A DNA stretch of 64,000 nucleotides from a virus (taxonomy: Duplodnaviria > Caudoviricetes). A model generated the notes under the pieces. That model did not search any database. It saw only the letters and a list, made by a program, of their open reading frames with translations, and was not told the DNA's origin. Where the stretch lies: IMG/VR virus record IMGVR_UViG_3300020388_000011, positions 46,030 to 110,029 of that record, one strand, 5' to 3'. Each line of letters opens with the position of its first letter. The first letter of the stretch is position 1. A program made the position numbers and the translations under genes. Positions 45,711-63,041 of the stretch are shown one piece after another.

Positions 45711-45765
45711 CCAATCTACAAAGTGTCACACCAAGCCTCTCACGGATCCCGTGGGGGGCTATACT
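45711..45765 (+). promoter_or_regulatory. Dyad-hairpin-(-10) element, diverged copy
   Basis: CCAATC-tac-AAAGTGTCAC; 11-bp hairpin with G-T pairs ending at TATACT. Confidence 0.65.
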
Positions 45766-45792
45766 AGTTGTATCAACAGAGCAGAGAACCAC

Positions 45793-47046
45793 GTGATTCA
45801 GCTTCGTCCCCACCAACAGCAAGGCACCGATGCTATGGACGTAGCTTCCCGTGGAATCATCTTGGTTCCTACTGGTGGTGGTAAGACCTTGATGGGCATT
45901 ATGGACGCCTGTAAGCGCTTTGAGAGCGCTTCTGAGCCCATCTCCATCATTGTTGTGGCTCCACGTCTCCTGCTCGCCAACCAGCTCTGTGAAGAGTATA
46001 TGGAGGTCATCAAAGATCAAGTCTCTACTCAAGTTGTTCCCGCTCATATTCATTCTGGGGACACCTCACATTTCTCTACCACCAAAGCCAGTGAGATCCG
46101 TAACTTCATCTCTATGACCCAGGCAGCGGGTCTTCACAGCATCTTCTTTACCACCTATCACAGCCTTCATAGACTCGCTGAGAGTAGTGTTCATGCTGAC
46201 ACCATTTACTTTGACGAGGCACACAACAGCGTCCAAAGGGGCTTCTATCCAGCTGTAAAGTTCTTCTCAGAGACCACGCAACGCGCATTCTTCTTCACCG
46301 CCACACCTAAGCACAGTGTGACCCCAAAGAAGCCTGGTATGAACGACAGCAGTGTCTATGGAAACGTCATCGTCAACGTAGAGGCTTCTAAGCTTGTCCA
46401 AGGGGGCTTCATTGTTCGTCCACAGGTCGTAGCACGTGAGCTACGTATGCTTCAGCGGGACGAATTGACTTCTGAGCGTGACTCTGAGCACATCATCCAG
46501 AGCATTGACGAGAGTCGCGTTAGTAAGGTTCTGGTCTGCGCCAAGAGTGTAAAACAGATCACTCGTATGGTTGCTGAGTCTACCTTTGTGAATGACTTGA
46601 AGGCACGTGGCTTCTCCTATATGTACATCTCTGCAAAGACTGGTGCAGTCATCGATGGACGCAAAGTAACACGCGAAACATTCTTTAAGACACTCAATGC
46701 TTGGGGCGCTGACAACACGAAGCAGTTTGTAGTTCTTCACCACTCTATCCTCTCTGAAGGTATCAATGTTTCTGGTCTTGAAGCTGTTATTATGCTGAGA
46801 GCTATGGATGCTATCGGTATTTCTCAGACCATCGGTCGTGTGATCCGTTTACACAAAGATGATGCTGCTGGTCTCCGTGCGGGAACCATCACTCCTGGTG
46901 ATACTGACGCTTACACTAAGTCTTTTGGTTTGGTGATTGTACCTGTATTCAACAGGGCTCAACAGGGCGTAGCACGTTCTATTGATAAGATTGTGGACCT
47001 TGTATTTGAGCAAGGTGGTGCTGCTACTTCTGTCATTCGGAGATAA
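45793..47046 (+). CDS. SF2 DEAD/DEAH-like helicase
   Basis: LRPHQ, PTGGGKT, DEAH, TATP, LSEGINV, QTIGRVIR; start moved to GTG 45793, downstream of the promoter element. Confidence 0.88.
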   Translation: MIQLRPHQQQGTDAMDVASRGIILVPTGGGKTLMGIMDACKRFESASEPISIIVVAPRLLLANQLCEEYMEVIKDQVSTQVVPAHIHSGDTSHFSTTKASEIRNFISMTQAAGLHSIFFTTYHSLHRLAESSVHADTIYFDEAHNSVQRGFYPAVKFFSETTQRAFFFTATPKHSVTPKKPGMNDSSVYGNVIVNVEASKLVQGGFIVRPQVVARELRMLQRDELTSERDSEHIIQSIDESRVSKVLVCAKSVKQITRMVAESTFVNDLKARGFSYMYISAKTGAVIDGRKVTRETFFKTLNAWGADNTKQFVVLHHSILSEGINVSGLEAVIMLRAMDAIGISQTIGRVIRLHKDDAAGLRAGTITPGDTDAYTKSFGLVIVPVFNRAQQGVARSIDKIVDLVFEQGGAATSVIRR

Positions 47047-47073
47047 ATAAACATATAAGGTTAAAATAAAATA

Positions 47074-47895
47074 ATGTCAGCTATCATTTTTCCAGAAAAT
47101 CCCACACTAAATGAACAGTTTCTAGCGGGTGATTATGCGTTTCAATGGAATGGAACTGCTTGGATTGGAATATCAGTATCACCAGAGGGATTAGAAGGTG
47201 CTACTGGACCCCAAGGACCTAATGGTCCCACTGGTCCTGATGGTCCTTCTGGTCCTGACGGTCCTGATGGTCCCACTGGTCCTGATGGTCCTTCTGGTCC
47301 TCCTGGTCCAAGCGTCACTGGTCCTCCTGGTCCCGATGGTCCTGACGGTCCCGATGGTCCTCCTGGTCCAAGCGTCACTGGTCCTCCTGGTCCCGATGGT
47401 CCTCCTGGTCCTTCAGTAACTGGTCCTCCTGGTCCTCCTGGTCCTGTTGGTCCTGTTCCTAGTTTTGCTTTTGTGTCTCATCAACAACCAAGTGGAACAA
47501 ATGGTGGGGCGTTAATTGCTGGATATCAAACGCAACCATTGAATACTGAATTTGATCCCGATGGTATAGTTACTCTGAGTAATAACCAATTCACTCTTGG
47601 TGTTGGTACTTACGTAATTGAGTGGGCAGCTCCTGCGCGGGATAATAGTGGGCAAAGATCAAAACTGACAAATGTTACATCTAATTCGGTTCAAGCATTA
47701 GGTAGCTCCGTTATCAGTTCGAGTAGTGGTAAGTTTTCAAATGGTACAACGAAAGTAGTGATTTCATCTAATACAACATTTAAAATTGAAACTTATTCTG
47801 TACAAGGATCTTTTGGTAATACTGAAGGTCTAGGGGGTGCTGTCAGTTCTGGTGACAACGAAGTTTATGCTTCAGTCTCTATTTTTAAATATTGA
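47074..47895 (+). CDS. Short collagen-like fibre protein (GPD/GPP repeats) with a C1q-like beta head
   Basis: FPENP...WNG.AW N-terminus, G-P-X block, ...NNQFTL..GTY.I. Confidence 0.8.
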
Positions 47896-47944
47896 CACTG
47901 TAGTCATTCGGAGATAAATACACCTATAATGTTAAAATAACATA

Positions 47945-48640
47945 ATGGCAGCCATCACTTTCCCAGAAAATCCAGTACTAAACCAGCAGTTTCTAGCGGG
48001 TGATTATGCTTTCCAGTGGAACGGGGCAGCTTGGATTGGAATATCAGTATCACCAGAAGGGCTTGAAGGTGCTACTGGTCCAGAAGGACCTAGTGGTGCC
48101 GATGGTTCTACTGGAGCCACTGGCGATGATGGTCCTAGTGGTCCCCAAGGTACGACTGGCGCTACTGGCGCTAATGCTATTGGTCAGGTAGTATCAACAA
48201 CTAAGACTGATACTTATTATGCCGCAACTAGTAACTGGATTGATATTCCTAGTTTTAGTATTACTCTAACTCCATCATCAGCTTCTAGTAAGTTTATGGT
48301 GTTTGTTAATATCAAAGCATCAGTGACCCCCAACCAAGTTGGGGCATTCAGACTTGTTAGGAATGGTACTCTAGTCGGTAACGGTGTTGCAGCTGGTCAA
48401 CGTCCAGCAGCATTTTCTAGGATTGTAAATGTTGATAATGCTTTCGCTCAGATGTTTGACGTAGCACATTCATACTTGGATTCGCCAGCAACAACATCAG
48501 CCGTTACTTATACAGTACAGATGAAAAATCTCACTGGCTTTGGCGATGAAATTTTAACAATTAACCGTGTCGTTTCTGATAATGATATTGGATTAAATGC
48601 AAGGTTGGCATCAACTATCTCAGCCATTGAAGTTGTATAG
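47945..48640 (+). CDS. Short collagen-like fibre protein, paralogue with a different head
   Basis: First ~46 aa nearly identical to 47074; head resembles the C-terminus of 29415 (SYLDSP.T...TY..Q). Confidence 0.8.
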   Translation: MAAITFPENPVLNQQFLAGDYAFQWNGAAWIGISVSPEGLEGATGPEGPSGADGSTGATGDDGPSGPQGTTGATGANAIGQVVSTTKTDTYYAATSNWIDIPSFSITLTPSSASSKFMVFVNIKASVTPNQVGAFRLVRNGTLVGNGVAAGQRPAAFSRIVNVDNAFAQMFDVAHSYLDSPATTSAVTYTVQMKNLTGFGDEILTINRVVSDNDIGLNARLASTISAIEVV

Positions 48641-48674
48641 GTATATGCTATAATATCAGGAGTAAATATCATAG

Positions 48675-48800
48675 ATGACTATGAAGACATTTTTAAACTA
48701 TGCTATAGTGGCTTGTCTTGCTGTTATTACTTGGGAGTATGGACATCCATACATTCCCGGTCTAGTCGTTGATCATCCAGTTCACGAACATACACACTAA
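48675..48800 (+). CDS. Small membrane peptide (41 aa)
   Basis: MTMKTFLNYAIVACLAVITWEYGHPY...; follows TGCTATAAT and AGGAG. Confidence 0.5.
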   Translation: MTMKTFLNYAIVACLAVITWEYGHPYIPGLVVDHPVHEHTH

Positions 48801-48801
48801 A

Positions 48802-48963
48802 ATGGAACCAGTAACCTTAACTCTTACTATGCTAGTAGGATTAGTTCAAATATCACCTAATACTTGTGAATTTGAACTACTTCATCCTAATGGTCAGATT
48901 GACACGCATCAGGTAGAATGTAGATTAATATACAGAGAAGATTTACTACAGATCAAATCGTAA
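48802..48963 (+). CDS. Hypothetical protein
   Basis: MEPVTLTLTMLVGLVQISPNTC... Confidence 0.55.
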   Translation: MEPVTLTLTMLVGLVQISPNTCEFELLHPNGQIDTHQVECRLIYREDLLQIKS

Positions 48964-49014
48964 ACTGTCCACTACAATTTGCCATATTATACACAGTGAT
49001 GTATAATATGTTCA

Positions 49015-49097
49015 TCACTCAATGATAGTCCTGAATAAGACTTTAAAAGATTTCAAGCTCCCACAAAGGATCCTGAAAGATCATTTGACTTGAGTGA
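49015..49097 (+). ncRNA. Candidate structured RNA
   Basis: TCACTCAA/TTGAGTGA closing stem enclosing two hairpins with CTGAA loops; begins at the predicted TSS of TATAAT 49002-49007. Confidence 0.4.
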
Positions 49098-49113
49098 GTG
49101 CTTGTGCTACAAT
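49085..49113 (+). promoter_or_regulatory. Sigma70-type promoter
   Basis: TTGACT-17 bp-TACAAT with TG extension. Confidence 0.7.
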
Positions 49114-49168
49114 TCATCGGTAATCAATTGCGATTACTTAGTTCTTTATTATTTTACAAATATAAAAA

Positions 49169-49738
49169 ATGTTCAACAAATCAATTCTAGCCGCTGCTCT
49201 TCTTACAGTCGGCGCAATCGCTGGCGGATCTGCTGTATCTGCCGCTGAAATTGGTGTCCGCAACACCACTGGCTTCTCTACTCGTAACGTTACTGGTGGT
49301 CAGAGTTCCTACGTTCGTAGCGTAACTGGTCAGTTTACTGAGAATTCTTCTGGTAGCGTACTTGAAGTCAACGCCAACAACTATTCAGTTCTTGACGTAT
49401 CAGAATCTACTGGTGCTGTCTCCACAGGTACCTTTGAAGGTGGTTTTGGTGGAAGGGCAGCAGGTCTTGTTTCGGGTAACCGATCTATCGTTGGCTTTAG
49501 CAATGGTCGCGCACGTGCCGACCTAGGTCTACAAGGCGGTCTCTCGGGCGATATCATTCTAAATGAGGGTGATAGTTCTTCATCTACTGGAACTGTTAGA
49601 GATGGTGACTTCCGTCGCGCTTCCAGCGAGTATACTCGTAATGAAAGTGGTGATATCCGTGAAGTAACTCGTGAGAGCTTCAACTTTAGTGGTCGCTCAC
49701 GTTCAGACTTCTCTGAGCTAAGCACCTTCTCACGCTGA
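49169..49738 (+). CDS. Exported hypothetical protein (Ser/Gly/Thr-rich beta)
   Basis: Sec signal peptide ending ...SAVSA/AE. Confidence 0.75.
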   Translation: MFNKSILAAALLTVGAIAGGSAVSAAEIGVRNTTGFSTRNVTGGQSSYVRSVTGQFTENSSGSVLEVNANNYSVLDVSESTGAVSTGTFEGGFGGRAAGLVSGNRSIVGFSNGRARADLGLQGGLSGDIILNEGDSSSSTGTVRDGDFRRASSEYTRNESGDIREVTRESFNFSGRSRSDFSELSTFSR

Positions 49739-49798
49739 TAGAATATAAGGGGGAGTGGTTCCCCCATCACCCCTTTTTATTATTCCTCTTTGATAACA

Positions 49799-50449
49799 AT
49801 GTTTAAGAATATTTCAAAATTTGCTGCTTTTGCTGCTGTTGTTCTATCTTCTGCCCCTGTTATGGCACAAGATGCTAGATTCAACGCAAATGCAAATAAC
49901 AGCGCACAAAACACCCAGACTAACTCTGGTGCAGTCAACCTAGCCCCTATGGGTGGTTCAAACGCCAACTATCAGATCAACTCAGTATCTAATAGTCAGT
50001 TCGGTTTTGCTCCTGGTATTCAATGTCCAACTCCAGAGCTTGCATTTGGTGGATTCGGTGGACAAACCAATGGTTGGGGCAACACAGGTTACAACACCGC
50101 TGGTAACAACCTAGGTGGTACAGTAATGTTCACAATGCCTATCGGTGGTGATACTGCCGAGTATTGTAAGGAGCTTGCGCGTGAAATCGCAAAGCAACGT
50201 CGTTTAGATACTGAAGTCAATATGATTCGTCAGTGTGCTCAACTTGCCAACTCAGGCATCACCATTGATGTGGAGCAGTTCCCTGACTTTGCTCTATGTG
50301 CTGGTGTACGTGGTGTAAATGGCAACACAGCCCTCCTAGCGGAGCCTGAGCGTGTATTCAGTCCTGCTGATACAGCTATTCCTGTTGTACCCGTGAGCAA
50401 GACTCTTACTAGTCTAGAGCAGCAACTTAATGCGGTTACCGCAAACTGA
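49799..50449 (+). CDS. Exported hypothetical protein
   Basis: Signal peptide ending ...APVMA/Q; Asn/Gln-rich N-terminus, GIQCPTP, four Cys. Confidence 0.75.
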   Translation: MFKNISKFAAFAAVVLSSAPVMAQDARFNANANNSAQNTQTNSGAVNLAPMGGSNANYQINSVSNSQFGFAPGIQCPTPELAFGGFGGQTNGWGNTGYNTAGNNLGGTVMFTMPIGGDTAEYCKELAREIAKQRRLDTEVNMIRQCAQLANSGITIDVEQFPDFALCAGVRGVNGNTALLAEPERVFSPADTAIPVVPVSKTLTSLEQQLNAVTAN

Positions 50450-50533
50450 TCCAATTCTAAAACTGGAACATAAGCCCCCACAAGGGGTTTTTTAATGCTA
50501 TAATTTATTCATACCAACCAAGGTCACTCACAA

Positions 50534-50728
50534 ATGTCAGAAAACATGAGCTACGCATCCGTTCTTTATGAAATGCAAGAAATTAAGGATGAATGGCGTC
50601 GTAATGACTATACATATCTAGAAGGTCAGAAAGAACGTTATGCTCTTCTTCTTGAAGTTCGTCGAGTTCGTGTTGCTCAAATGTACGCAGACGGACGAGT
50701 ACACGATGGATCAATGCAGTCAGGCTGA
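50534..50728 (+). CDS. Hypothetical protein
   Basis: ORF directly after promoter element 50451-50504. Confidence 0.6.
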   Translation: MSENMSYASVLYEMQEIKDEWRRNDYTYLEGQKERYALLLEVRRVRVAQMYADGRVHDGSMQSG

Positions 50729-50762
50729 TACGCAGCAACTTGAACTAAACAACGCAATTATT

Positions 50763-51005
50763 ATGGAAAATCAACCCCTAGATCAGTACTGGACAACCCC
50801 ATATGGCGATTTTGCCATCCGAAAGACACGATTTGGGGTTTATACTTCATATGACCGTGAATTAGTTCAACTAGTAACAGGTGGTACATATGAAGCTGTC
50901 TTTAAAATGACCCCATCACACCTACAATGGGCACGAGAAGGATATATTGTACCTAAAGGACAAGAAGTAGGTTCCTATTCATCATCCGTTGGAGTAAAAC
51001 TATGA
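50763..51005 (+). CDS. Hypothetical protein
   Basis: MENQPLDQYW...Y...VG.KL; start moved to 50763. Confidence 0.6.
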   Translation: MENQPLDQYWTTPYGDFAIRKTRFGVYTSYDRELVQLVTGGTYEAVFKMTPSHLQWAREGYIVPKGQEVGSYSSSVGVKL

Positions 51006-51373
51006 CACACGACTACAAAGAAACATTGTACATCAATTTGTTCAATGTATTGAGTGAATTGACCGAGCACGAGTCCCCAGAAGCAATCTTTGATCGCATC
51101 GTAGAAGACTTTGCTACAAGTGCAGAGTATCATATGGGTCAAGCAGACACTTTCAAGTCCATGCTAGACACATTTAGGCACGACAATCCAGTAAATACAG
51201 TATCTGATGGAGCTGATAGTCTTGTTCTATCTGACAATGATTTCACTCTAGAAGAGGCTGAATCTATGTTGAGTGGTGTTAATCCATTTGATAGGGAACA
51301 ATTGTTAGAGGACCGTGACCAACTGCTTAAATTTATGTCAAGTGTAAGTTTTCCTGACACATCAGAGCTATAA
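51002..51373 (+). CDS. Acidic hypothetical protein
   Basis: ATGA-coupled ORF. Confidence 0.6.
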   Translation: MTHDYKETLYINLFNVLSELTEHESPEAIFDRIVEDFATSAEYHMGQADTFKSMLDTFRHDNPVNTVSDGADSLVLSDNDFTLEEAESMLSGVNPFDREQLLEDRDQLLKFMSSVSFPDTSEL

Positions 51374-51397
51374 ATATACCATACCAGCGGAATCATT

Positions 51398-51553
51398 ATG
51401 GACAACGATTACATCGAAATTGATCATTGCGCAATGGCACATGAAACCGAAAAATGGTTTAAGGAGCGTGATAAGAACAGCTGGAGATCAAAGTATGAGA
51501 GATTCTGTGAAGAGAATCCATGGGATCTGGAGTGTAAAATCTTCGATACCTAA
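51398..51553 (+). CDS. CP12-like peptide (51 aa, C-terminal motif only), not in ORF track
   Basis: Ends ERFCEENPWDLECKIFDT, matching the CP12 E.(Y/F)C...P...EC..(Y/F)D motif; late promoter at 51369. Confidence 0.7.
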   Translation: MDNDYIEIDHCAMAHETEKWFKERDKNSWRSKYERFCEENPWDLECKIFDT

Positions 51554-51626
51554 AGTCAGTTAGTAAACTGTCACACCTATTAACCATAGTCCCCCTTAAA
51601 TGGACTATATTAAATCTGTTGAGACG

Positions 51627-51818
51627 ATGACCTACCAAATGTTCGTTACTGATCAGTACATCACCTTCACATATGCCATCTCAACTGAAGGAGTTGATTA
51701 TGGTACGGGGTATTATCTCACCCAAGAATATAGTGATGGTGGTATGGACTATTTTGGTCCATATGACTACGAGGAAGACGCACGTAGCATCATATCCAAC
51801 ACACCACGTATTTTTTAA
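51627..51818 (+). CDS. Hypothetical protein
   Basis: GPY..EE.A motif; start after promoter element 51555-51611. Confidence 0.55.
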   Translation: MTYQMFVTDQYITFTYAISTEGVDYGTGYYLTQEYSDGGMDYFGPYDYEEDARSIISNTPRIF

Positions 51819-51820
51819 CT

Positions 51821-51949
51821 ATGAATAACCTTATTGAAGACTTTGATTTATTTGAAGCACTCGGTATTTCTGAAGAATGGGAAGATCAAGAGGTTGCTGA
51901 CGAATATGCAGAACAAGACGCTCGCACACTAAAAGAATATGGCTTTTAA
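51821..51949 (+). CDS. Small acidic peptide (42 aa)
   Basis: MNNLIEDFDLFEALGISEEWEDQEVADEYAEQDARTLKEYGF. Confidence 0.5.
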   Translation: MNNLIEDFDLFEALGISEEWEDQEVADEYAEQDARTLKEYGF

Positions 51950-52241
51950 TTTAGGCTACGCTGGAGAAGCATTCCCCTTCTTCAGGCTAGCCATCGGTGC
52001 TGTACTTGTATGGGCAGGACTAAACATTAGTATTGTTATTATTGAAAACTCGGAGGAGAATTTGTGATTGATTGGAGTCAATATGTATATGCATTCATTA
52101 TTGGATGTATGTTATACATTGCTTATGAATCCATCGTAAATAAAATTAAGCTTCTTGAAAAAAAATTTGAGAAAAGACTAAAACATCATAGAGATCTTTT
52201 TGAGAATGAAATCTCAAAAGTTTACGACAACCTAGAATAAC

Positions 52242-52547
52242 ATGGATTTTATAGTAACAGTTAGGACATACACTGGTGCTGTTAAGTCAGTAGAAGTCAA
52301 GAACATGCCCGATGAGGATGCTGCCCGTGCTGAAGCGGTTAGCTTAACTTTTGGGCGTGTTCTTTCTATTGAGAGAACAGATACCGAGGAAGTTGTAGTA
52401 GTAGATACTACACCAAAGAAGAAAAAGCGGAAACTACCTGAAATTGAAAGAGAACTGATGCCTGGTGAGACTGAAACTATCGTCACTGGATACGATAACA
52501 ATCCACTAGCAGTCTTCTCATACCTAAATGATGATGGGTTAGTGTGA
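52242..52547 (+). CDS. Hypothetical protein
   Basis: 101-aa ORF ending at a repeat element. Confidence 0.6.
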   Translation: MDFIVTVRTYTGAVKSVEVKNMPDEDAARAEAVSLTFGRVLSIERTDTEEVVVVDTTPKKKKRKLPEIERELMPGETETIVTGYDNNPLAVFSYLNDDGLV

Positions 52548-52608
52548 CGGATACTGTAGTGTCCACCTAACCCCCACAGGGTACCCAAATGCCCTATACT
52601 AATTACAT
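52544..52608 (+). repeat. Dyad-hairpin-(-10) promoter repeat, core copy
   Basis: TGTCCACCTAACCCCCACAGGGTACCCAAATGCCCTATACTAATTACAT; 48/49 identical to 52922-52970. Confidence 0.85.
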
Positions 52609-52625
52609 ACCAAAGGAAAATCTTA

Positions 52626-52919
52626 ATGAAGAATAATATCTATGTTCTTAACGGCGTTTTAAGTGATTATAGTTTAGGTATGGCAGTAATCTGTGCCCAA
52701 AATCTCACTCGATGTAGGGAGATATATAGTGATAATTTTATCATTGGGCGTGGTACTGATGTGTATCTAAAACAGTTTGATCGTTCGATTGAAATAGGAA
52801 CATTTAGGGTCATAGAAGATGCTACGGATCAACCTGAAGGTGTTATCTCGTGTGTTTATGCTTATTGTTCTTCTGAAGAGCTTTCTACAGACTATGACAA
52901 AATACATGGCAAGTCCTAA
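52626..52919 (+). CDS. Hypothetical protein (single-gene cassette)
   Basis: Bounded by repeats; stop codon lies inside the next repeat. Confidence 0.6.
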   Translation: MKNNIYVLNGVLSDYSLGMAVICAQNLTRCREIYSDNFIIGRGTDVYLKQFDRSIEIGTFRVIEDATDQPEGVISCVYAYCSSEELSTDYDKIHGKS

Positions 52920-52970
52920 ACTGTCCACCTAACCCCCACAGGGCACCCAAATGCCCTATACTAATTACAT
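52909..52970 (+). repeat. Dyad-hairpin-(-10) promoter repeat, core copy
   Basis: AAACTGTCCAC...CCCCCACAGGGCACCCAAATGCCCTATACT. Confidence 0.85.
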
Positions 52971-52985
52971 CAACACAGGACCCCA

Positions 52986-53174
52986 ATGAACTCCGATCTT
53001 ATTAAACTAATGGAAGCACAGGGATCTGATGGAATCCTAGAAATGATGGTTGATAGGGATGGTTCAACTTTCTTGCTTGAAAAGCTTTTTGCCACAATGG
53101 ATGAAACAGAGGTTGCCGAGTGGGTTGCCTGGTTTAAGTCCAGTGTAGAAACCTACACACGAAACCACCCATAG
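52986..53174 (+). CDS. Hypothetical protein (single-gene cassette)
   Basis: 62-aa ORF between repeats. Confidence 0.6.
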   Translation: MNSDLIKLMEAQGSDGILEMMVDRDGSTFLLEKLFATMDETEVAEWVAWFKSSVETYTRNHP

Positions 53175-53224
53175 GGTCTTCAATGCCCTATACTAATCAC
53201 ATCAACACAAAAGACTTTCTTCCA

Positions 53225-53416
53225 ATGGATTTCGGTGCTCTTCTTCAGGCAATTGGTCATATGGCAGTTTGCCTGTTTTTTACTGGTCTTATTATTGGGT
53301 GGGTTATTTTTACAGAGAGGATGATTAAAAATCGTCTCACATATCTCTTCGTCGCTTTTCTTCCTATTATAACAGTTCTTACCATTTTGAAATATCATAT
53401 GATCGCCAGTTCATAA
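53225..53416 (+). CDS. Small 2-TM membrane protein (cassette)
   Basis: Start at 53225 after diverged repeat 53140-53194. Confidence 0.55.
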   Translation: MDFGALLQAIGHMAVCLFFTGLIIGWVIFTERMIKNRLTYLFVAFLPIITVLTILKYHMIASS

Positions 53417-53475
53417 ACTGACCACTGAACCCCCACAGGGCACCCAAATGCCCTATACTAATTACATCAACACAA
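53406..53475 (+). repeat. Dyad-hairpin-(-10) promoter repeat, most complete copy
   Basis: CCAGTT-cata-AACTGACCAC-TGAACCCCCAC-AGGGCA-cccaaa-TGCCC-TATACT-AATTACATCAACAC. Confidence 0.9.
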
Positions 53476-53486
53476 CACCACTACAA

Positions 53487-54965: not shown

Positions 54966-54996
54966 AACCTCGTAGGGCAACCTACGGGGTTTTTTT
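54966..54996 (+). terminator. Intrinsic terminator
   Basis: AACCTCGTAGG-GCAA-CCTACGGGGTT plus T-run. Confidence 0.85.
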
Positions 54997-55010
54997 GTTG
55001 AATTGAAGAT

Positions 55011-55250
55011 ATGTCCTTTAAAAAGAGTAAAGAGCAGCTTAATTCTGAGTTCAAACTAGTTATTGATCGGGCACATGTATGTGGTAAGGGAGCTGCTAGG
55101 GCAGACAACCTACACAAACTAGCCACTCAACTAGGATATATCGATGCTGCCCTCACAGGCGGTAAGCTGACCAATAAGCAGGCAGCACAGCAAGTTAAAG
55201 ATTTGTACAGGGCTTGGAAAGAAACCAACAGAGCCATTGACCTAGAGTGA
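55011..55250 (+). CDS. Hypothetical protein
   Basis: 79-aa ORF, GGKL....A...VK.L. Confidence 0.6.
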   Translation: MSFKKSKEQLNSEFKLVIDRAHVCGKGAARADNLHKLATQLGYIDAALTGGKLTNKQAAQQVKDLYRAWKETNRAIDLE

Positions 55251-55271
55251 TTCTGTGCTATAATTTATAGT

Positions 55272-55658: not shown

Positions 55659-55673
55659 CCCATCTAATTTATT

Positions 55674-56083: not shown

Positions 56084-56085
56084 TT

Positions 56086-56431: not shown

Positions 56432-56433
56432 TA

Positions 56434-56488
56434 GACAGTTTATATACTGTTCACTAGGGGACGCAAGTCCCCCTTTTTTTGCTATAAT
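56434..56488 (+). promoter_or_regulatory. Dyad + terminator hairpin + extended -10 element
   Basis: GACAGTT-tata-TACTGTTCAC; GGGGAC-GCAA-GTCCCC then T7; TGCTATAAT 33 bp after the dyad. Confidence 0.75.
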
Positions 56489-56512
56489 TTATACATAACA
56501 AGTAAATTACAC

Positions 56513-57220
56513 ATGAGGATCAATCCAGTTAATGACTCCTTGATGGAGTCAGTTGCAGAAACTAAGTCACTACTTGCTAACAGGAGGATAGCAGTTGCTT
56601 GCGGCAATAGGTTCACTCTCACTGCAACAGTTATGACCCCAGCTATTGCACAGTCATTCGTTGGTGGTACATCAACAGAAGAAGAGGCACTAGAGATAAT
56701 AAGCGATAGCAATCCAGATCTGTTGATTGCAACCGAAGACCTTGAAAGGGGATATGGTATCAGACTAGTAGAGAGGGTGAAGAAACTAAATCCAAAGATC
56801 AAAGTACTCATCTTCCTCAAGCGAGAGACCCATGAGGTAGTCAAAGAGGCTATGGATGCGGGAGCTGATGGTGTGATGTTTATATCATCTATAGGCACTG
56901 GTGATGGTGACTTCATCAATGCTTTAAGAACAATCGCCAAAGGAGCTATTTACTATCCCCAACCTGTACTCAATGCGTACTGTAAGCATAATAGACCAGC
57001 ACCAGTACTAGCTGATCCACTATCGAGGAGGGAGCTAGATGTCATTAGTTGTCTTGTTAATGGGATGAAGAATTCAGAGATTTCTGAAGAACTCCGAATA
57101 TCGTCAGAGACAGTAAAGAGTCACGTAAGCTCTACTATATCTAAGCTCGGTGTTAGGGATAGGACTCAAGCTGTTGTGTTTGCCTTGACTCACGGATTGG
57201 TTGAGAGTCAATTGGTGTAG
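56513..57220 (+). CDS. NarL/LuxR-family response regulator with degenerate receiver domain
   Basis: Intact LuxR HTH (LSRRELDV...GMKNSEISEEL.IS.ETVKSHV...KLGVRDRTQAV); REC fold PDLLIAT...A..AGADG. Confidence 0.9.
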   Translation: MRINPVNDSLMESVAETKSLLANRRIAVACGNRFTLTATVMTPAIAQSFVGGTSTEEEALEIISDSNPDLLIATEDLERGYGIRLVERVKKLNPKIKVLIFLKRETHEVVKEAMDAGADGVMFISSIGTGDGDFINALRTIAKGAIYYPQPVLNAYCKHNRPAPVLADPLSRRELDVISCLVNGMKNSEISEELRISSETVKSHVSSTISKLGVRDRTQAVVFALTHGLVESQLV

Positions 57221-57261
57221 TGTCCACTGCCCCTTGCTAGGGGCTTTTTTATTGCTATACT
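57207..57261 (+). promoter_or_regulatory. Dyad + terminator hairpin + -10 element
   Basis: GTCAATT...AGTGTCCAC; GCCCC/GGGGC then T6; TGCTATACT at the same 33-bp spacing. Confidence 0.7.
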
Positions 57262-57266
57262 AAGTT

Positions 57267-57303
57267 CAACCAACCAACCCAACCAACCCAACCAACCCAA
57301 CCA
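57267..57303 (+). repeat. CAACCAACC tandem repeat in 5' UTR
   Basis: Three full 9-mers (57271-57297) plus flanking partial copies running into the ATG. Confidence 0.9.
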
Positions 57304-57651
57304 ATGGCTTCCTTCGCTGACTACGTTGACTCCAAGCCTGCTGCTGATAAAGCTGAGGCTGATGTGCTACGCTACACCGAGGTGCTTATTGAAGCACTGA
57401 CCCAGGATGCCCCTGACGACTACACCTACGCCATTGACGGTGGTCGTAAGTTCCATAAGGTGTGGATGTATCGCTATGGCAAGCGTGACTCCATCCACGC
57501 CTTTGTGGACAAGAAGACTGGTGAGGTTTACAAGCCTGCCAGCACCAAGGCACCAGCCAAGGGTGTTCGCTTCAACCTCCTAGACCCCATCAGCCGCGAG
57601 AAGTGTCTAGCCAAGGCTGGATGGTCGGGAGGATATTTATATATCCGTTAA
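57304..57651 (+). CDS. Conserved T4-like hypothetical protein
   Basis: GRKFHK, SIHAFVDKKTGEVYKPAS.KAPAKGVRF, W.GGYLY. Confidence 0.8.
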   Translation: MASFADYVDSKPAADKAEADVLRYTEVLIEALTQDAPDDYTYAIDGGRKFHKVWMYRYGKRDSIHAFVDKKTGEVYKPASTKAPAKGVRFNLLDPISREKCLAKAGWSGGYLYIR

Positions 57652-57690
57652 CTTGACTTGATCAAAGTAAAGACCTTTAACTAAACTATT

Positions 57691-57921
57691 ATGAAACACC
57701 CACTAACTGACGAAATTTGCTATCAACTGGCTGAGTTGTGGTGTCCCGATTCAGGTGAGAGAGAGAACATGCGAGCCGCTGCTGATTGGCAGTTGAAGCA
57801 GTGCCTTGAGTTTCTACGAACTACCAAATTTCATGAGCGTAGTGATTACTTTGATCTCCGGTATGACAATTATGCAAATTTATTGGAAGACGCAATGCGC
57901 CCCACACAGGAGGACAACTAA
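57691..57921 (+). CDS. Hypothetical protein
   Basis: HPLTDE...MRAAADWQL...AMRP. Confidence 0.6.
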   Translation: MKHPLTDEICYQLAELWCPDSGERENMRAAADWQLKQCLEFLRTTKFHERSDYFDLRYDNYANLLEDAMRPTQEDN

Positions 57922-57925
57922 ACTG

Positions 57926-58090
57926 ATGAAAAAAAAGGAACTACTCAACAAGATTGAAAATTTAGAAGATATAATCATTGTCTTGTGCCGCAAACAAGAT
58001 AGAAAAATAGAAGAACTTATGGAGAGAGTTGTTTGTTTAGAGACTGAGCTTCAGGCTAGAAAATTAATCCACAAAATTCAAAATCAATGA
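57926..58090 (+). CDS. Small coiled-coil protein
   Basis: GGAGG RBS; heptad pattern. Confidence 0.45.
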   Translation: MKKKELLNKIENLEDIIIVLCRKQDRKIEELMERVVCLETELQARKLIHKIQNQ

Positions 58091-58111
58091 AATGTACCCT
58101 GAGGACAACTC

Positions 58112-58345
58112 ATGACTGATGCACTACAACTTGCCGAGAACCTTGCCTTTGATGCCTATATGAGGTATCACCGCAACAGAATGACCCTCTCAACCTCTGA
58201 TGTGGACCAGCTCCGCACCTATGACGTGGTTGACCGTGGTGAGAACTTTGTTATACTGTATAAGAACGGTATGGATGCTGGTAAGTCCTGTATCTACGCC
58301 ACAATCAATAAGGAGACCTGTAAAGTATGTTCGAGCTATATTTAA
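58112..58345 (+). CDS. Hypothetical protein
   Basis: GAGG RBS. Confidence 0.55.
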   Translation: MTDALQLAENLAFDAYMRYHRNRMTLSTSDVDQLRTYDVVDRGENFVILYKNGMDAGKSCIYATINKETCKVCSSYI

Positions 58346-58533
58346 TTGCAGGGCTTGCCCTGAACCCCCTAGATGCCTCTGAGAGGATAAATATGTTTTG
58401 TGCTGAAGTGGTAGGAATCCCCTATGCCTCTGGTGCATTCAGTGAAGAAGAATGGGACAGATTTGCATACTGTAGAGAATCCATAAGAGTACCACATCCT
58501 AAACTGACCACTGAACCCCCACAGGGCACCTAG
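58327..58533 (+). CDS. Hypothetical protein
   Basis: FCA.VVGIPYAS..FS.EEW.RF..C; C-terminus reads into a repeat. Confidence 0.55.
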   Translation: MFELYLIAGLALNPLDASERINMFCAEVVGIPYASGAFSEEEWDRFAYCRESIRVPHPKLTTEPPQGT

Positions 58534-58561
58534 ATGCCCTATACTAATTACATCAACACAA
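58492..58561 (+). repeat. Dyad-hairpin-(-10) promoter repeat, core copy
   Basis: TAAACTGACCACTGAACCCCCACAGGGCACCTAGATGCCCTATACTAATTACATCAACAC. Confidence 0.9.
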
Positions 58562-58575
58562 AGGACTTTCCTCCA

Positions 58576-59244
58576 ATGGCTACAAAAATCAACCTCTTCG
58601 CTGATAAGATGAATGAGAAGGATTTTTATATGACCCGCGCTCAACTCAATAAAGTAATTGAGTGGATGCCCCCTAGTGTAACAAAGATTATCAATTCAGT
58701 TAAGACCAAGCGTGAGATTGATGCCCTAAAGAAACTCTTTAAGGATCCTAACTCTGCTATGTCTAAAGCCACAGCTAAGGGACGTAACTTCCATAAGGCA
58801 TTAGAAACTGGTGTTATTGTTGATACTTTTACTGAAAAGGTAGTATCTCTCTTCAAGAAGGATATTTTAGTTGATATTGATGAAGTATGGGCTCAAGAGA
58901 AGTCTATCTATCACAAAGATCACTTTTATTATGGTAAGTTTGATGGTATTGGCGTCTATAAAGGAAAAGTAACATTATTTGATTATAAGAAAACCAATAA
59001 GGCTAAGAAGAACAACTCGTCAATGAGAAACTATCTTATTCAGCTATGTGCCTACAAGAAAGCTCACGAATCAATGTATCCTGATATTCAAATTGAGCAG
59101 GTAGCTATTTTCAACCTGTTCGGTAAGACTGAAAGTGAATTAGGTACTAACGTAAAGATTCTAAATGATACTGAAGTTGAACAGCATACGAATCTATTCT
59201 ACGGTCATTTGTTTGATTTTCAAATGAATCTAAAAGGCGCTTGA
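58576..59244 (+). CDS. PD-(D/E)XK nuclease (second exonuclease-like gene)
   Basis: PSVT.I, G..FH..LE, E, GKFD...FDYK, Y.IQL.AY. Confidence 0.8.
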   Translation: MATKINLFADKMNEKDFYMTRAQLNKVIEWMPPSVTKIINSVKTKREIDALKKLFKDPNSAMSKATAKGRNFHKALETGVIVDTFTEKVVSLFKKDILVDIDEVWAQEKSIYHKDHFYYGKFDGIGVYKGKVTLFDYKKTNKAKKNNSSMRNYLIQLCAYKKAHESMYPDIQIEQVAIFNLFGKTESELGTNVKILNDTEVEQHTNLFYGHLFDFQMNLKGA

Positions 59245-59275
59245 TTCCAATTTCATTTTCTATTTTTTCCATCTA

Positions 59276-59887
59276 ATGTCACTTCTATCCACACTGAAGA
59301 CGTACCACATTCCATTCGCATCGGGCTACTCTAGCGATATCTATATGCGCTACGGTAAGGTCGTTAAGGTGCTTGAAGATGGATGCTATGAAGACACACT
59401 CAAAGAAGTAGCACTACAACAGACTGCTGCTGATGCTGGACTAGCTCCACAAATCTATAGTGTGTTTGAGGTTCCTGGTGCTGTTATTATTGTTATGGAA
59501 GCCATTGATACTGATAAGTTCAAGCAAGTTGTAGAGAATACTCCCATTGGTTATGACCCCATAAGACTAGGTGGGTTGGATGATAATGCTATGATGCTTG
59601 GCTCTAAACTATACGCCGACCTAATCAAGGCAGGCATCATCCATGCAGATTTCCACGTTCAGAACTGGTTGAGGTGTGGTAGTGAGGCAATTGCGCTTGA
59701 CTTTGGTGTTGCTGACTATATCCAAGACGCGAGCTACCGACACCTTACAGTAGCTGTGACCACGCTCACACCCGCTCTAATGGCTCTCAAAGAGTTTGAG
59801 CTACTCTATGAGATGAGTGAGTGTAGCAGCTCCTGTGAGCTACGTGAGATGATTAGGAAGGCAGCCAATCTCATTAGTGACCACTGA
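59276..59887 (+). CDS. Ser/Thr protein kinase-like protein
   Basis: VVK, E..LQ..A...GLAP, IVME, IIHADFHVQN, LDFG. Confidence 0.8.
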   Translation: MSLLSTLKTYHIPFASGYSSDIYMRYGKVVKVLEDGCYEDTLKEVALQQTAADAGLAPQIYSVFEVPGAVIIVMEAIDTDKFKQVVENTPIGYDPIRLGGLDDNAMMLGSKLYADLIKAGIIHADFHVQNWLRCGSEAIALDFGVADYIQDASYRHLTVAVTTLTPALMALKEFELLYEMSECSSSCELREMIRKAANLISDH

Positions 59888-59918
59888 ACCCCCACAGGGC
59901 ACCCAGCTGCCCTATACT
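59864..59918 (+). repeat. Dyad-hairpin-(-10) promoter repeat, core copy
   Basis: AGTGACCACTGAACCCCCACAGGGCACCCAGCTGCCCTATACT. Confidence 0.85.
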
Positions 59919-59944
59919 AATAGATGACATCCCTTAGAAATCCA

Positions 59945-60130
59945 ATGAAAAACTCAGGACGTCTTATAGCTGCAGTTGCAATTCTCCTTGCAGAACCTTT
60001 GTTCCTTATGGTGGTATGGAATGCTTTCATACCAGGTATTTTTGGATTACCAACTTTGGGATACTGGTCTGCAGTGGGATTGTTGGCAGTTTGTAGTATA
60101 TTATTTAAACCCACTCCCCATAACCACTGA
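59945..60130 (+). CDS. Small 2-TM membrane protein (cassette)
   Basis: WN...P.IFGLP.LGYW; stop inside the next repeat. Confidence 0.6.
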   Translation: MKNSGRLIAAVAILLAEPLFLMVVWNAFIPGIFGLPTLGYWSAVGLLAVCSILFKPTPHNH

Positions 60131-60187
60131 ACCCCCACAGGGCACCCAGATGCCCTATACTATTCACATAAGCAACGGACACCAATG
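60123..60187 (+). repeat. Promoter repeat, 63/65 identical to 60465-60529 including leader and ATG
   Basis: Direct sequence comparison. Confidence 0.9.
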
Positions 60188-60460
60188 GCTAAAAGAAAGT
60201 TCTTCACAACAAAATCCCAACGGATTAATGACATAAACCAACATCACACGTTTTCACTTGATCATGTTGTGTCAATTAAGAGTTACGATAGATATTCCTT
60301 CCACGACCACAACGAGAAAAGCGCCCACATGATCGAGATTACCCTTGAAGCAGGTGGACAAAGAGAGGTCTTAGTAGTTTGGTTTGATCTTGATGGGGAA
60401 AAGGAAAGGGATATGGAATATAAACGATTGAATAAAGCATTAACAAAAAACAATTCCTAA
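60185..60460 (+). CDS. Hypothetical protein (single-gene cassette)
   Basis: Flanked by 65-bp direct repeats. Confidence 0.6.
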   Translation: MAKRKFFTTKSQRINDINQHHTFSLDHVVSIKSYDRYSFHDHNEKSAHMIEITLEAGGQREVLVVWFDLDGEKERDMEYKRLNKALTKNNS

Positions 60461-60529
60461 ACTGACCACTGAACCCCCACAGGGCACCCAGATGCCCTAT
60501 ACTAATTACATAAGCAACGGACACCAATG
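60451..60529 (+). repeat. Dyad-hairpin-(-10) promoter repeat, core copy
   Basis: CAATT-ccta-AACTGACCAC...TGCCCTATACT. Confidence 0.9.
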
Positions 60530-61420
60530 ACCAAGAACCTCCACCTGGAACACCCCGAGGACCAAATCCTATCAGGCGACCTATCAGTGCTTGACTGGTT
60601 TGCTGCAATCTCAGAGACCAGTGTGAAGATGGATGGTTCAGTCGCTATTGTATGGGGCATCAACCCAGAGAATGGTAAGTTTTTCGTAGGTAAAAAAAGT
60701 GTCTTCAATAAGGTCAAGGTTCAGATCTGTTACACACCACAGGACATCACCAAGTTCTATGGTGACCGTGAAGAGCTAGCAGATATTCTCCTCACCTGCC
60801 TTGACTTCCTGCCCCGTACTGGCGGCATCTATCAAGGTGACTTCATTGGGATGGGTGGTCATTCATCATACACACCCAACACAATCACATATGATTTCGG
60901 TGAGCCTGTTGATGAGGTTCTAATCATTGCACCTCATACATATTATGTTGGCGACACCATCAAGGATTGTGTTGCTCACCCACTATCACACGTATTAGAA
61001 TCAACTGGTGAGGTTCTGTTTGTTCAACCTACTGTTGATTGTAAGTATATCTTCCACGATTCAGTCAAGGCAATCCGTAAATCAGTAGAGAAGTCTAAGT
61101 TCCTATCTACCAAGCAAGCCAAAGAGGTTCGTATCATCCTCAACGCATTCATCCGCGAAGGCAAGTCAATCAGCCCACAACTACTAGAACAGATTGTAGG
61201 TGACTGGACGCTTACACAGTCATACTTCCAAGTGCTTGATATCAAAGAGCAGATGATGGAAGCAATGATGGTGTATGATGGTCCCAAGGCATCTATCGGT
61301 GATATGCCCGTAGCTTGTGAAGGCTTTGTCCGTACTAACAAGTTCGGTAGTCTCAAACTTGTAGATAGATACCAGTTCGCACAGGCTAACTTCAACAACA
61401 CCAGGTTCAGGTCAAACTGA
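60527..61420 (+). CDS. Conserved T4-like protein (DUF6267-like)
   Basis: NLHLEHPED, SVK.DG..AIVWG, K.SVFNK, QGDF, PNTITY, EG.V, KLVDR..F..ANF. Confidence 0.75.
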   Translation: MTKNLHLEHPEDQILSGDLSVLDWFAAISETSVKMDGSVAIVWGINPENGKFFVGKKSVFNKVKVQICYTPQDITKFYGDREELADILLTCLDFLPRTGGIYQGDFIGMGGHSSYTPNTITYDFGEPVDEVLIIAPHTYYVGDTIKDCVAHPLSHVLESTGEVLFVQPTVDCKYIFHDSVKAIRKSVEKSKFLSTKQAKEVRIILNAFIREGKSISPQLLEQIVGDWTLTQSYFQVLDIKEQMMEAMMVYDGPKASIGDMPVACEGFVRTNKFGSLKLVDRYQFAQANFNNTRFRSN

Positions 61421-61475
61421 CCCACTTCCCAAACTGATCACTAAACCACCCCAAGGCACACAGATGCCTTATACT
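61421..61475 (+). repeat. Dyad-hairpin-(-10) element with compensatory stem change
   Basis: AAGGCA/TGCCTT replaces AGGGCA/TGCCCT. Confidence 0.8.
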
Positions 61476-61502
61476 ACATACATAGCAAACGAGGCTTACC
61501 AA

Positions 61503-61832
61503 ATGCTTATCAACTGGACAGATGAAGAGAGAGCAGCCGCTACCCGTGGTGATGTAAACATCTTCATTCTCAACACCACTCCACAAGCCATCAGGGAGAT
61601 GGACAAAGAACTTCCCACTGATACGCATATCATTGAGTATGTTATTGATGGTGAGACATCCTATGATGCTGTTAGAGGCTATAAGATGAGCGATATCTTC
61701 AATGTCTACCACGATAAGTTCCGAAGAGACGGTATCACTGCTCAGGTCATTAGCATCAAAAGTGGCTATGGCGTGATTAAACCCAAGCTCTACGGCTACC
61801 AAGCCGTTGAATCATCCAAGAAAACCAAGTAA
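61503..61832 (+). CDS. Conserved hypothetical protein
   Basis: LPTD.H..EY...D.VR...DIF..YHD...GYG.I.P.LYG. Confidence 0.7.
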   Translation: MLINWTDEERAAATRGDVNIFILNTTPQAIREMDKELPTDTHIIEYVIDGETSYDAVRGYKMSDIFNVYHDKFRRDGITAQVISIKSGYGVIKPKLYGYQAVESSKKTK

Positions 61833-61924
61833 CGAATGGTTAAGACAGTCTAAATTGTCTTGGTTAAAGCACAAAAGTCTGTTATAATATGTGTGTAAAT
61901 ACTAACAGAGTAATTCATCTAATT

Positions 61925-62089
61925 ATGAGACATAACCTAGAGGACGCCCTGATAAATGATTGCGAAGACTATTTACTACACAGATATATTCCATTACATT
62001 CATACACAGGAGACGAAATTATAAAGCAAGCCATTAAAGAAGGTTATATGATGGATCTATTCCATCGCAACCACTCTCGGACCACATAG
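61925..62089 (+). CDS. Hypothetical protein
   Basis: Follows TGTTATAAT at ~61880. Confidence 0.5.
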   Translation: MRHNLEDALINDCEDYLLHRYIPLHSYTGDEIIKQAIKEGYMMDLFHRNHSRTT

Positions 62090-62135
62090 TAAAGTGACCA
62101 CTAACTCACCACGGCACTGCCTGGTGGGTTATACT
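62081..62135 (+). repeat. Dyad-hairpin-(-10) element, alternative stem sequence
   Basis: AAAGTGACCAC; ACTCACCA...TGGTGGGT stem abutting TATACT. Confidence 0.75.
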
Positions 62136-62157
62136 ATATTCATACCAAAGGGGACCA

Positions 62158-62235
62158 ATGATCAAGTCACAAGTTCGGCGCATCGTCCAGTATTCGCCTA
62201 TACCAACTTCACACAGGGTAAGTTCAACTGATTAA
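62158..62235 (+). pseudogene. Truncated copy of the 63067 gene start
   Basis: First 31 nt match 63067-63097 (30/31), then diverge and stop after 25 codons. Confidence 0.6.
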
Positions 62236-62286
62236 AGTTACTCACCTCTAAATTACTCCATTGATGTAACCATTACTTCCTTACTC

Positions 62287-62979
62287 ATGTTTAACTTCTT
62301 CTCTAATCAGACCGAATCTAATTCAGTTCCATACCCAGACCCAGTATTTGCAACAGAAAAAAAATTAATTCTGTATGTTATTAAAGAAACTTCAAGTTTT
62401 TCGAAAATTTATAAGGAACATGCTATTCCTGAATGGAAAGCACAGTATCCCCTTAAACAAGATTGTCTCTATCCATATAATGTTTGGCAGAATGATGAGA
62501 GTTTAATTCTTGAATTAGCAAAAACATCTGATGATGAAGAAATCCTTCGTGCCATTTATAATACTCATCGTATTGGTTTTGTGTTAGCGTACACAGCACA
62601 TATAATCTATCCAGAACTATATTTAAATATCAATCTTCCTGATGATCTGATTGATTGTTATCTCAATTCAGATCTCAGAAAACTGATGAGAGAAGATTTC
62701 TTTAAAGAGAGTGTTAGATTAAAGAATATGTTAAAGGTAGGATTTAATTCTACTGTGAATGAAAAGATTCAAAGACGTATTGATGAAATCGATATTATAA
62801 AAAGAAAGGAGAAAGAAGATAAGACAAAGAATAAACTTAAGGCATTTCTGATTACTGCATCTGCAACTAAGAGTGTATTGAAAGGTAACTCTATTGATGA
62901 TGTAGTAGAAGCATCTATCACTGAAGATGTAGATGAAGAAGTACTTGATTATATGAACAAACTATTTCAAAAGTCATAG
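62287..62979 (+). CDS. AT-rich hypothetical protein, probably recently acquired
   Basis: 230 aa; AT-rich codons; flanked by the 11-bp direct repeat AGTTACTCACC. Confidence 0.7.
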   Translation: MFNFFSNQTESNSVPYPDPVFATEKKLILYVIKETSSFSKIYKEHAIPEWKAQYPLKQDCLYPYNVWQNDESLILELAKTSDDEEILRAIYNTHRIGFVLAYTAHIIYPELYLNINLPDDLIDCYLNSDLRKLMREDFFKESVRLKNMLKVGFNSTVNEKIQRRIDEIDIIKRKEKEDKTKNKLKAFLITASATKSVLKGNSIDDVVEASITEDVDEEVLDYMNKLFQKS

Positions 62980-62986
62980 TTACTCA

Positions 62987-63041
62987 CCCAGTTCTTTAAC
63001 TGACCACTAACCCACCACAGGGCACCTAGATGCCCTATACT
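62987..63041 (+). repeat. Dyad-hairpin-(-10) promoter repeat, core copy
   Basis: CCAGTT-cttt-AACTGACCAC...AGGGCACCTAGATGCCCTATACT. Confidence 0.85.

Follow-up and report, generated by a model that had tools for sequence, protein, structure and literature searches.

A 64-kb stretch of virus DNA, positions 46,030 to 110,029 of IMG/VR record IMGVR_UViG_3300020388_000011 and hereafter called the window, carries a unit of ~75 bases that recurs 17 times before its mostly small genes, and the question it raises is what such a unit does for the genes on either side of it. The window is the final part of a 110-kb contig of ~50% estimated completeness, and it aligns with the three isolates of Synechococcus phage S-CAM7 at 88% identity, in patches that cover about half of the region; judged by these alignments the source virus is a Mazuvirus (S-CAM7-like) T4-type cyanomyophage of the Kyanoviridae. 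Among the main photosynthetic bacteria of the ocean a large share falls victim to cyanomyophages, and the 'hyperplastic' regions of small unknown genes in cyanophages are the seat of host-specific takeover and anti-defence functions. Upstream of 44 kb the window has long plus-strand open reading frames (ORFs) that align with annotated S-CAM7 tail-fibre and tail-protein genes, while from 44 kb on it has ~50 plus-strand ORFs, mostly small, and no Rfam families or tRNAs were found within 44-64 kb. We consider the unit to be, probably, an 'end last gene, start next' cassette head of this S-CAM7-like phage, in which the principle of the promoter-early stem-loops (PeSLs) of the T4-like phages RB49/phi1, T4/PST and KVP40/nt-1 (Arbiol et al. 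2010, PMC2839356; Comeau et al. 2014, PMC4122927) would be realised on a cyanophage-specific early-type promoter. With the array one would have a concrete signal, and one that can be counted, by which to find early-type genes in uncultured cyanophages.

Layout of the repeated unit and its distribution in cyanophages

A sequence-only reading of the window had listed an array of 17 copies, and a copy is indeed present at all 17 places (E1 to E17, in order of position). All lie on the plus strand between 45.7 and 63.0 kb, and all precede ORFs, either small genes or gene groups. Alignment of the copies by anchoring on the -10 hexamer reveals a common order: an imperfect 22-bp palindrome (trGmCAsTT-N4-AAsTGwCCA), a C, 28 bp containing a GC-rich hairpin, the hexamer TATA(C/A)T, and A-N4-CAT, which a C/A-rich leader of 20-35 nt separates from the ATG. 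From 36 non-redundant copies of the window and S-CAM7 the consensus is CA.TT-N4-AA(C/G)TG(A/T)CCAC-T-N27-TATA(C/A)T-A-N4-CAT. The box (C/G)TG(A/T)(C/T)CAC ends exactly 28 nt before TATA(C/A)T in 14 of the 17 window copies, and over the window and S-CAM7 together this distance is 28 nt in nearly all copies and 27-29 in a few. The exceptions to the layout are E1, E2 and E4, shifted by 1-2 nt, E7, whose box is degenerate, and E13, which is without the palindrome.

Several details of the sequence-only reading are borne out by this alignment. The 33 bp it gave between AACTG and the -10 correspond to ACCAC plus the 28 nt, CCCCAC does occupy the -35 position of the core copies, and eight copies (E5, E6, E8, E11, E12, E13, E14 and E17, family D1) are nearly identical over 45-65 nt. 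Its dyad is real, with a strongly conserved right arm, and is less symmetric than had been described, the left arm CA.TT being weaker. This left arm usually coincides with the last codons of the upstream gene, whose stop codon often falls in the palindrome spacer or the right arm (e.g. ccTAAACTG). The palindrome fits as two 9-mers in a 9-4-9 register; an 8-6-8 register (GTGGACAG-N6-CTGTCCAC), which is seen in other cyanophages, misfits this lineage and was rejected.

Chance origin of the array is excluded. The strict pattern has 12 plus-strand matches in 48.9-63.0 kb, with only loose, chance-like ones elsewhere in the 110-kb contig, and in S-CAM7 it has 16 forward and 0 reverse matches, the reversed-pattern control giving 0 and 2. 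A weight matrix trained on the S-CAM7 copies alone, its hairpin columns masked, gives 15-47 bits to 13 copies of the window, and no score in 20 shuffled genomes exceeds 11.8.

The search across cyanophages that the sequence-only reading had suggested, by matrix and pattern, found the palindrome-N28-(-10) layout in S-CAM7, Syn9, Syn1 and many uncultured cyanophages, and because it is common to all of these the units are, putatively, a -35-less promoter type that is the family's own and serves small early-type genes. The core copy recurs at 84-88% identity in Syn1, S-RIM44, S-CAM4, ACG-2014e/i/j and S-SKS1. The last of these (NC_020851, ~152.5 kb), a Llyrvirus outside the Kyanoviridae, has two core-type units (85%) and three more box-N28-(-10) matches, which suggests that cassette heads are exchanged between unrelated cyanophage families. 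In Syn9, GTGCCAGT-N6-AAGTGTCCAC-N28-TATTCT units lie between 43 and 53 kb, and the spacer of some contains a -35-like TTGA at the place where the phage of the window has its hairpin. Orthologues of the DUF6267 gene that follows E14 are present in 30 IMG/VR contigs, and most of them, even at protein identities as low as 39%, keep a GTGnCAGT-N6-ACTGnCAC palindrome ~30 nt before a -10.

In 2016 Doron and colleagues reportedly described, for Syn9 and P-TIM40, a novel non-host-like regulatory element at early genes, one that is abundant in T4-like cyanophages and conserved from phage to phage. The units resemble that element in occurring in a T4-like cyanophage, in accompanying small early-type genes and in being upstream elements unlike those of the host; to our knowledge a role in cassette shuffling formed no part of that work. 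A text search of the literature for the box sequence returned nothing relevant.

A putative promoter without a -35 box, its hairpin and its candidate reader

The sequence-only reading proposed a -35-less promoter with a fixed upstream two-fold site centred at about -52, and both the fixed layout and a scan for two-hexamer sigma-70 promoters support it. The scan found 57 against 48 expected, no enrichment, and among the units detected only E2 and E10. The palindrome occupies -63 to -42 and the hairpin spacer -40 to -13, so numbered that the -35 position holds CCCCAC or a hairpin arm and the region upstream is a GC-containing palindrome. In the mechanism we envisage, host RNA polymerase with its primary sigma factor would read the -10, and a dimeric protein on the palindrome, for which the host GntR regulator PlmA is the best candidate, would replace the -35 contact. 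This sets the units apart from PeSLs, in which a near-consensus sigma-70 promoter (TTGACA-N17-TATAAT) is preceded by AT-rich sequence and a stem-loop, whereas here the -35 is missing, the hairpin lies inside the promoter spacer and a 22-bp palindrome lies upstream. A T4 middle (MotA/AsiA) promoter was also considered and rejected, as the conserved box ends at -41 and there is no TGCTT box at -30; T4-like cyanophages are reported to be without motA and asiA (PMC5780444). Two further signals inside the array have no palindrome, a strong terminator with an 11-bp stem (54966-54991) and a canonical TTGACC-N16-TGnTATAAT promoter (55237-55264), the latter indicating that a second, host-like promoter class coexists with the units.

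The 28-nt spacer folds better than its shuffles (mean z -2.7), with 30 of 38 distinct copies below -1.64. At least seven unrelated stem sequences are found at the same place in the unit, namely GGGCA/TGCCC, AGGCA/TGCCT, CCCACC/GGTGGG, CCCACTGG/CTAGTGGG, GCGCAG/CTGCGC, a long stem around CACGG/CCGTG, and CTCACCA/TGGTGGG, and the stems differ in register between copies. In the larger class the 3' arm of the stem ends exactly at the -10 hexamer. The other class, to which E3, E9 and E10 belong in the window, has a stem and a T-run followed by TGnTATAAT; by their sequence these three are classic intrinsic terminators, at which termination is predicted. Orthologous copies show a two-sided change from GGGCA/TGCCC to AGGCA/TGCCT (E15) via a G.U intermediate, GGGCA/TGCCT, in isolate KU686213. 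In the long non-core stems one to three G.U pairs are confined to the sense strand, whose fold is 1-5 kcal/mol better than that of the complement. The hairpin may be a terminator or 3'-end stabiliser for transcripts arriving from upstream, and by stopping or stabilising these it would insulate each cassette.

Hairpins under such strong selection could also mean that the units act mainly at the RNA level, as terminators, processing sites or 3'-end stabilisers in read-through transcripts, with TATA(C/A)T as a terminator tail. The stems without a T-run almost always end directly at TATACT, as a tail would require, and the strand bias of the G.U pairs in the long stems points the same way. We nevertheless judge this quite unlikely: the invariant T-A-T-A-n-T with A-N4-CAT is the signature of a -10 and start site, not of a U-tract, the terminator-type copies possess a T-run of their own yet keep a separate TGnTATAAT, the palindrome at its fixed 28 bp has no terminator role, and Syn9 copies add a TTGAC -35 in the same register.

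If the unit is a promoter with a built-in hairpin, its palindrome calls for a reader, and here the host offers a comparison. We located the yfr2 genes (Rfam Cyano-1) in five marine Synechococcus, WH7803, the recorded host of one S-CAM7 isolate, and four others, in genomes found with Syn9 PsbA as bait. Their 13 yfr2 promoters contain CAACTGGCAC-A-GTGCCAGTTG and/or a single GTGCCAGTT or GGACAGTT near -60, half-sites that agree with CGRE1 as described, to which PlmA/PMM1637 binds in the yfr2 small-RNA promoters of marine picocyanobacteria (Lambrecht et al. 2018, PMC6191309). A matrix made from the host half-sites and applied in both orientations scores best exactly at the two phage arms and in the right orientations (means of ~+0.65 and -0.6 for two registers of the right arm and -0.7 for the left arm; background -10.4, sd 4.6), and exact GTGCCAGTT and GGACAGTT arms are present in S-CAM7 copies. 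The phage site and CGRE1 therefore have in common a 9-bp half-site (GTGCCAGTT / AACTGGCAC, with the variant GGACAGTT in host and phage alike) and a position near -60. They differ in arrangement, the host site being AACTGGCAC-A-GTGCCAGTT, 21 nt long with its arms facing the other way, and/or a single half-site, and the phage site GnCAGTT-N4-AACTGnCCAC, which does not have the host arrangement of a 21-22 nt palindrome flanked by CAAC...GTTG. Because the phage arms are the half-site of the host's PlmA-bound yfr2 promoters, PlmA is the best candidate reader, a reasonable one and nothing more, and we put it forward tentatively. It would be a named host factor for early transcription start in the absence both of a -35 box and of MotA/AsiA. 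Three PlmA-type half-sites were found in many marine Synechococcus yfr2 promoters: one is near -60, and a palindrome lies beside the -10, from about -40 to -20. This is more complex than the single 21-nt motif described (PMC6191309).

A number of observations speak against PlmA. The phage arms are everted (9-4-9) relative to CGRE1, most phage right arms carry one extra base (CTG-AC-CAC against CTG-G-CAC in the host), and PlmA binding has been demonstrated only for Prochlorococcus MED4 on its own site. A box-N26-30-(-10) layout is, moreover, not enriched in the five marine Synechococcus genomes, so that the host does not use the phage layout as such. Eversion, inserted base and a layout unused elsewhere in host genomes would all be compatible with a phage-encoded factor, injected or made early, that reads the palindrome instead. 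Such a factor might activate, or might repress and so shut off the early class, and the likeness of its site to that of the host at yfr2 would be a coincidence or serve in competition. The arm sequence also differs by cyanophage lineage (GTGGCAC, GTGTCCAC, GTGTAC), as expected of co-evolving phage readers. We are nonetheless doubtful of such a factor. No GntR protein is encoded on the 110-kb contig, S-CAM7 has the same units without the one DNA-binding cassette gene that was found (LuxR-type, 56513-57220), and early promoters must fire before phage proteins exist, unless the factor is injected.

Exchange of cassettes at the units

The idea that the units mark the points at which gene content changes was examined by comparing the window, the three S-CAM7 isolates and IMG/VR contigs, and the points where relatives have gained, lost or swapped cassettes do coincide with units. 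In at least eight events, in which a cassette was inserted, deleted, replaced or moved, the junctions lie inside units, often in the palindrome. The breakpoint enrichment that the sequence-only reading predicted is present: of the 40 ends of homology blocks between the window and the three isolates, 13 come within 15 bp of a unit, where 3.1 would be expected and where 0 of 10,000 randomisations arrive at 13. Block ends occur at 12 of 17 gene junctions with a unit and at 11 of 33 without (Fisher p 0.017).

A clean case is the E9-E10 cassette. E9, the gene it precedes and E10 correspond to one chimeric unit in S-CAM7 (L001 19207), a match to E9 as far as the left arm and to E10 from the right arm on, which places the crossover at the palindrome centre. 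The gene in between (56513-57220, plus strand) encodes a 235-residue LuxR/NarL-type response regulator (Response_reg and GerE). All three S-CAM7 isolates are without the cassette as a whole; such a phage-borne two-component regulator could rewire host transcription. For E6 and its gene (52922-53209) S-CAM7 has a different location (L001 36005-36293) and another hairpin, and the junction with S-CAM7 at E7 is in the leader. E14 and the DUF6267 gene have a different upstream neighbour in each of three settings, the window, S-CAM7/L113 and the IMG/VR contig L114, with identity beginning at AAACTGACCAC. L114 is precisely missing the restriction-modification cassette, 3.6 kb long, that S-CAM7 has, the junction falling within a unit, and two extra cassettes are present.

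Methyltransferase genes recur in these comparisons. Directly before E1 lies an N6/N4 DNA methyltransferase gene (44985-45710, plus strand) whose nearest S-CAM7 relative (68% nucleotide identity) occupies another slot (L001 27066-27854), while the E1 slot of isolate MT586120 has yet another methyltransferase, dmt, in a cassette flanked by an exact duplication of the 22-bp palindrome. In the slot between E16 and E17 the window has an unknown gene where S-CAM7 has an adenine methyltransferase, the one whose 68%-identical counterpart precedes E1. Methyltransferases are, on this alignment evidence, traded at the units, and the comparisons indicate more broadly that strains exchange restriction-modification, methyltransferase, response-regulator and unknown genes in the form of self-expressing cassettes. 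After E16 (62158-62188, family D8) there is a 97% repeat of the 31 nt with which the gene following E17 begins (63067-63097), and the ORF that this copy opens is short; a cassette insertion in which one crossover fell inside the gene seems to have left the partial duplication as its scar.

Because some 20-25 units lie in direct orientation, recombination between them leads to insertion, deletion, replacement and movement of cassettes of promoter and gene, and also exchanges hairpin modules from unit to unit. Homologous recombination by the phage itself would supply the machinery: among the S-CAM7 annotations are a UvsY-like mediator, an SbcCD-like gp46/47 nuclease and a DprA-like protein, and T4-type recombination requires only short identical patches, under 50 bp (PMC2839356). 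The PeSLs, which the sequence-only reading had named as precedent, are the right one. They too are repeated intergenic composites of stem-loop and early-type promoter, co-oriented in a hyperplastic region of small unknown genes, with junctions of indels, replacements and moves between close relatives that fall inside the motifs at variable points, and they need no dedicated recombinase. For PeSLs mini-circles and both promoter and terminator activity have been measured. PeSLs have not been described in cyanophages, S-PM2 having been judged to be without dense PeSLs (PMC4503421); the units would extend the PeSL principle to the group for which, in S-PM2, it was doubted.

The sequence-only reading had further likened the array to an integron, and in this it does not stand. 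A site-specific system would make the palindrome the att-type site of a dedicated recombinase and have the cassettes excised as circles. Like attC/IntI arrays, the array has tandem single-gene cassettes with imperfect palindromes between them and a content that varies among close relatives; several junctions lie in or at the edge of the 22-bp palindrome, and the dmt cassette sits between exact duplicates of it. Tyrosine and serine recombinases (PF00589, PF00239) are, however, absent from the contig and from the complete S-CAM7, with control genomes positive, and there is no integrase. Crossover points vary, from the palindrome centre to positions after the box, at the -10 or start site and in the leader; each cassette has its own promoter, whereas integron cassettes are read from one common promoter and cross over at a single point of attC; the palindrome stands at a fixed distance from the -10; and 22 bp of identity suffice for T4-type homologous recombination. 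The absence of a recombinase, the variable crossovers and the promoter in each cassette favour PeSL-like homologous shuffling, and an integron-like system is very improbable. That the palindrome is doubly used, as a site where PlmA, a stress regulator of the host, docks and the phage hijacks the switch of the yfr2 regulon to start its early genes, and as a preferred, perhaps protein-guided crossover point, we think unlikely; if true, it would amount to a targeted cassette system without an integrase, in which genes are exchanged at their operator together with their own hairpin, promoter and leader.

Eight near-identical copies in the window, and fewer in S-CAM7, are what might be expected of a selfish miniature mobile element spreading by transposition, its promoter-like sequence being incidental. 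Such an element of the MITE (miniature inverted-repeat transposable element) kind is hardly credible here, and was rejected: terminal inverted repeats and target duplications are absent, the copies have a single orientation and always an ATG directly behind them, at a leader distance that does not vary, orthologous positions are conserved from genus to genus, and the identity of the copies is explained by exchange between units, as in the hairpin-module swaps.

Some points weigh against the cassette-head reading that we favour over these alternatives. The ends of BLAST blocks tend to fall at the edges of repeats of any kind, and some indels between S-CAM7 isolates lie off the units (L001 12388/13546, and a right edge at 24040). 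The core-type hairpins are without a U-tract, and sense and antisense folding does not discriminate for them. We infer the promoter activity, early timing and start site of the units from their sequence. Finally, the units are probably the early element reported by Doron and colleagues, given the layout of the Syn9 units.

The individual units and neighbouring genes

The core-type copies are best represented by E8 (53406-53467), taken as the reference, with GCCAGTT-CATA-AACTGACCAC, the stem GGGCA/TGCCC, TATACT and CAT; its identity is 97% with a copy in S-CAM7 and 84-88% with those in other cyanophage genera. E5 (52544-52608) has GTGTCCAC, a stem GGGTA/TGCCC with a G.U pair, and TATACT, and an S-CAM7 homology block ends at it. 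In E6 (52909-52970) the TAA stop of the upstream gene lies in the palindrome spacer. E11 (58492-58553) scores 46.8 bits, and homology with S-CAM7 stops just past its left arm. E12 (59864-59926) has the box GTGACCAC, and E14 (60451-60511) precedes the DUF6267 gene (60527-61420), a family widespread among cyanophages. E17 (62987-63049) has a perfect CAGTT-N4-AACTG, with an S-CAM7 homology block starting at 62982. E13 (60123-60169) is a truncated core copy (16.4 bits), its palindrome gone and ACCAC, spacer and -10 remaining.

Of the terminator-type units, E3 (50451-50512) has the box AAACTGGAACA, a stem GCCCCC/GGGG(G) with a T-run, and TGnTATAAT; only its hairpin module differs from the orthologous S-CAM7 unit, and both flanks are syntenic. 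E9 (56434-56496) has GACAGTT-TATA-TACTGTTCAC, a stem GGGGAC/GTCCCC with T7, and TGnTATAAT. E10 (57207-57269) has GTGTCCAC, a stem GCCCCT/AGGGGC with T6, TATACT and a (CCAAC)n leader, which consists of ~8 CCAAC/CCAACC repeats up to the ATG (57262-57303) and has a shorter version in S-CAM7.

The remaining units, all on the plus strand like the others, depart further from the core. E1 (45711-45773) precedes a DEAD/ResIII helicase gene and has a box GTGTCAC(AC) shifted by 1 nt; its hairpin, the long stem around CACGG/CCGTG followed by TATACT, has a dG of -18.7 and a z of -4.5, and S-CAM7 homology begins at 45719, within the palindrome. The divergent E2 (48953-49015) has the box CTGTCCAC, a 29-nt spacer with a TTGCCA -35-like hexamer, TATAAT and an AT-rich inverted repeat overlapping the -10. 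The shifted E4 (51555-51619) combines a perfect CAGTT-N4-AACTG with a box GTCACAC, a stem GTCC/GGAC (4 bp in the fold) and TATATT. E7 (53140-53202), with the box AAACCTACACAC, a weak stem and TATACT, is degenerate and borderline at 10.5 bits. E15 (61421-61483) is a variant with the box CTGATCAC and the stem AGGCA/TGCCT, and E16 (62081-62143, family D4) has a different long stem, CTCACCA/TGGTGGG with an inner GGC/GCC (dG -14.9).

Among the genes of the region, that at 58534-59244 encodes an exonuclease-like protein (phrog_298; the match is weak or family-only) and that at 59276-59887 a protein with faint matches to a kinase fold. Two adjacent plus-strand genes, 47074-47895 and 47945-48640, have collagen repeats with a GGTCCT-type 9-nt periodicity and share a 266-nt segment of 79% identity; they lie in the cassette region, where S-CAM7 has unrelated genes.

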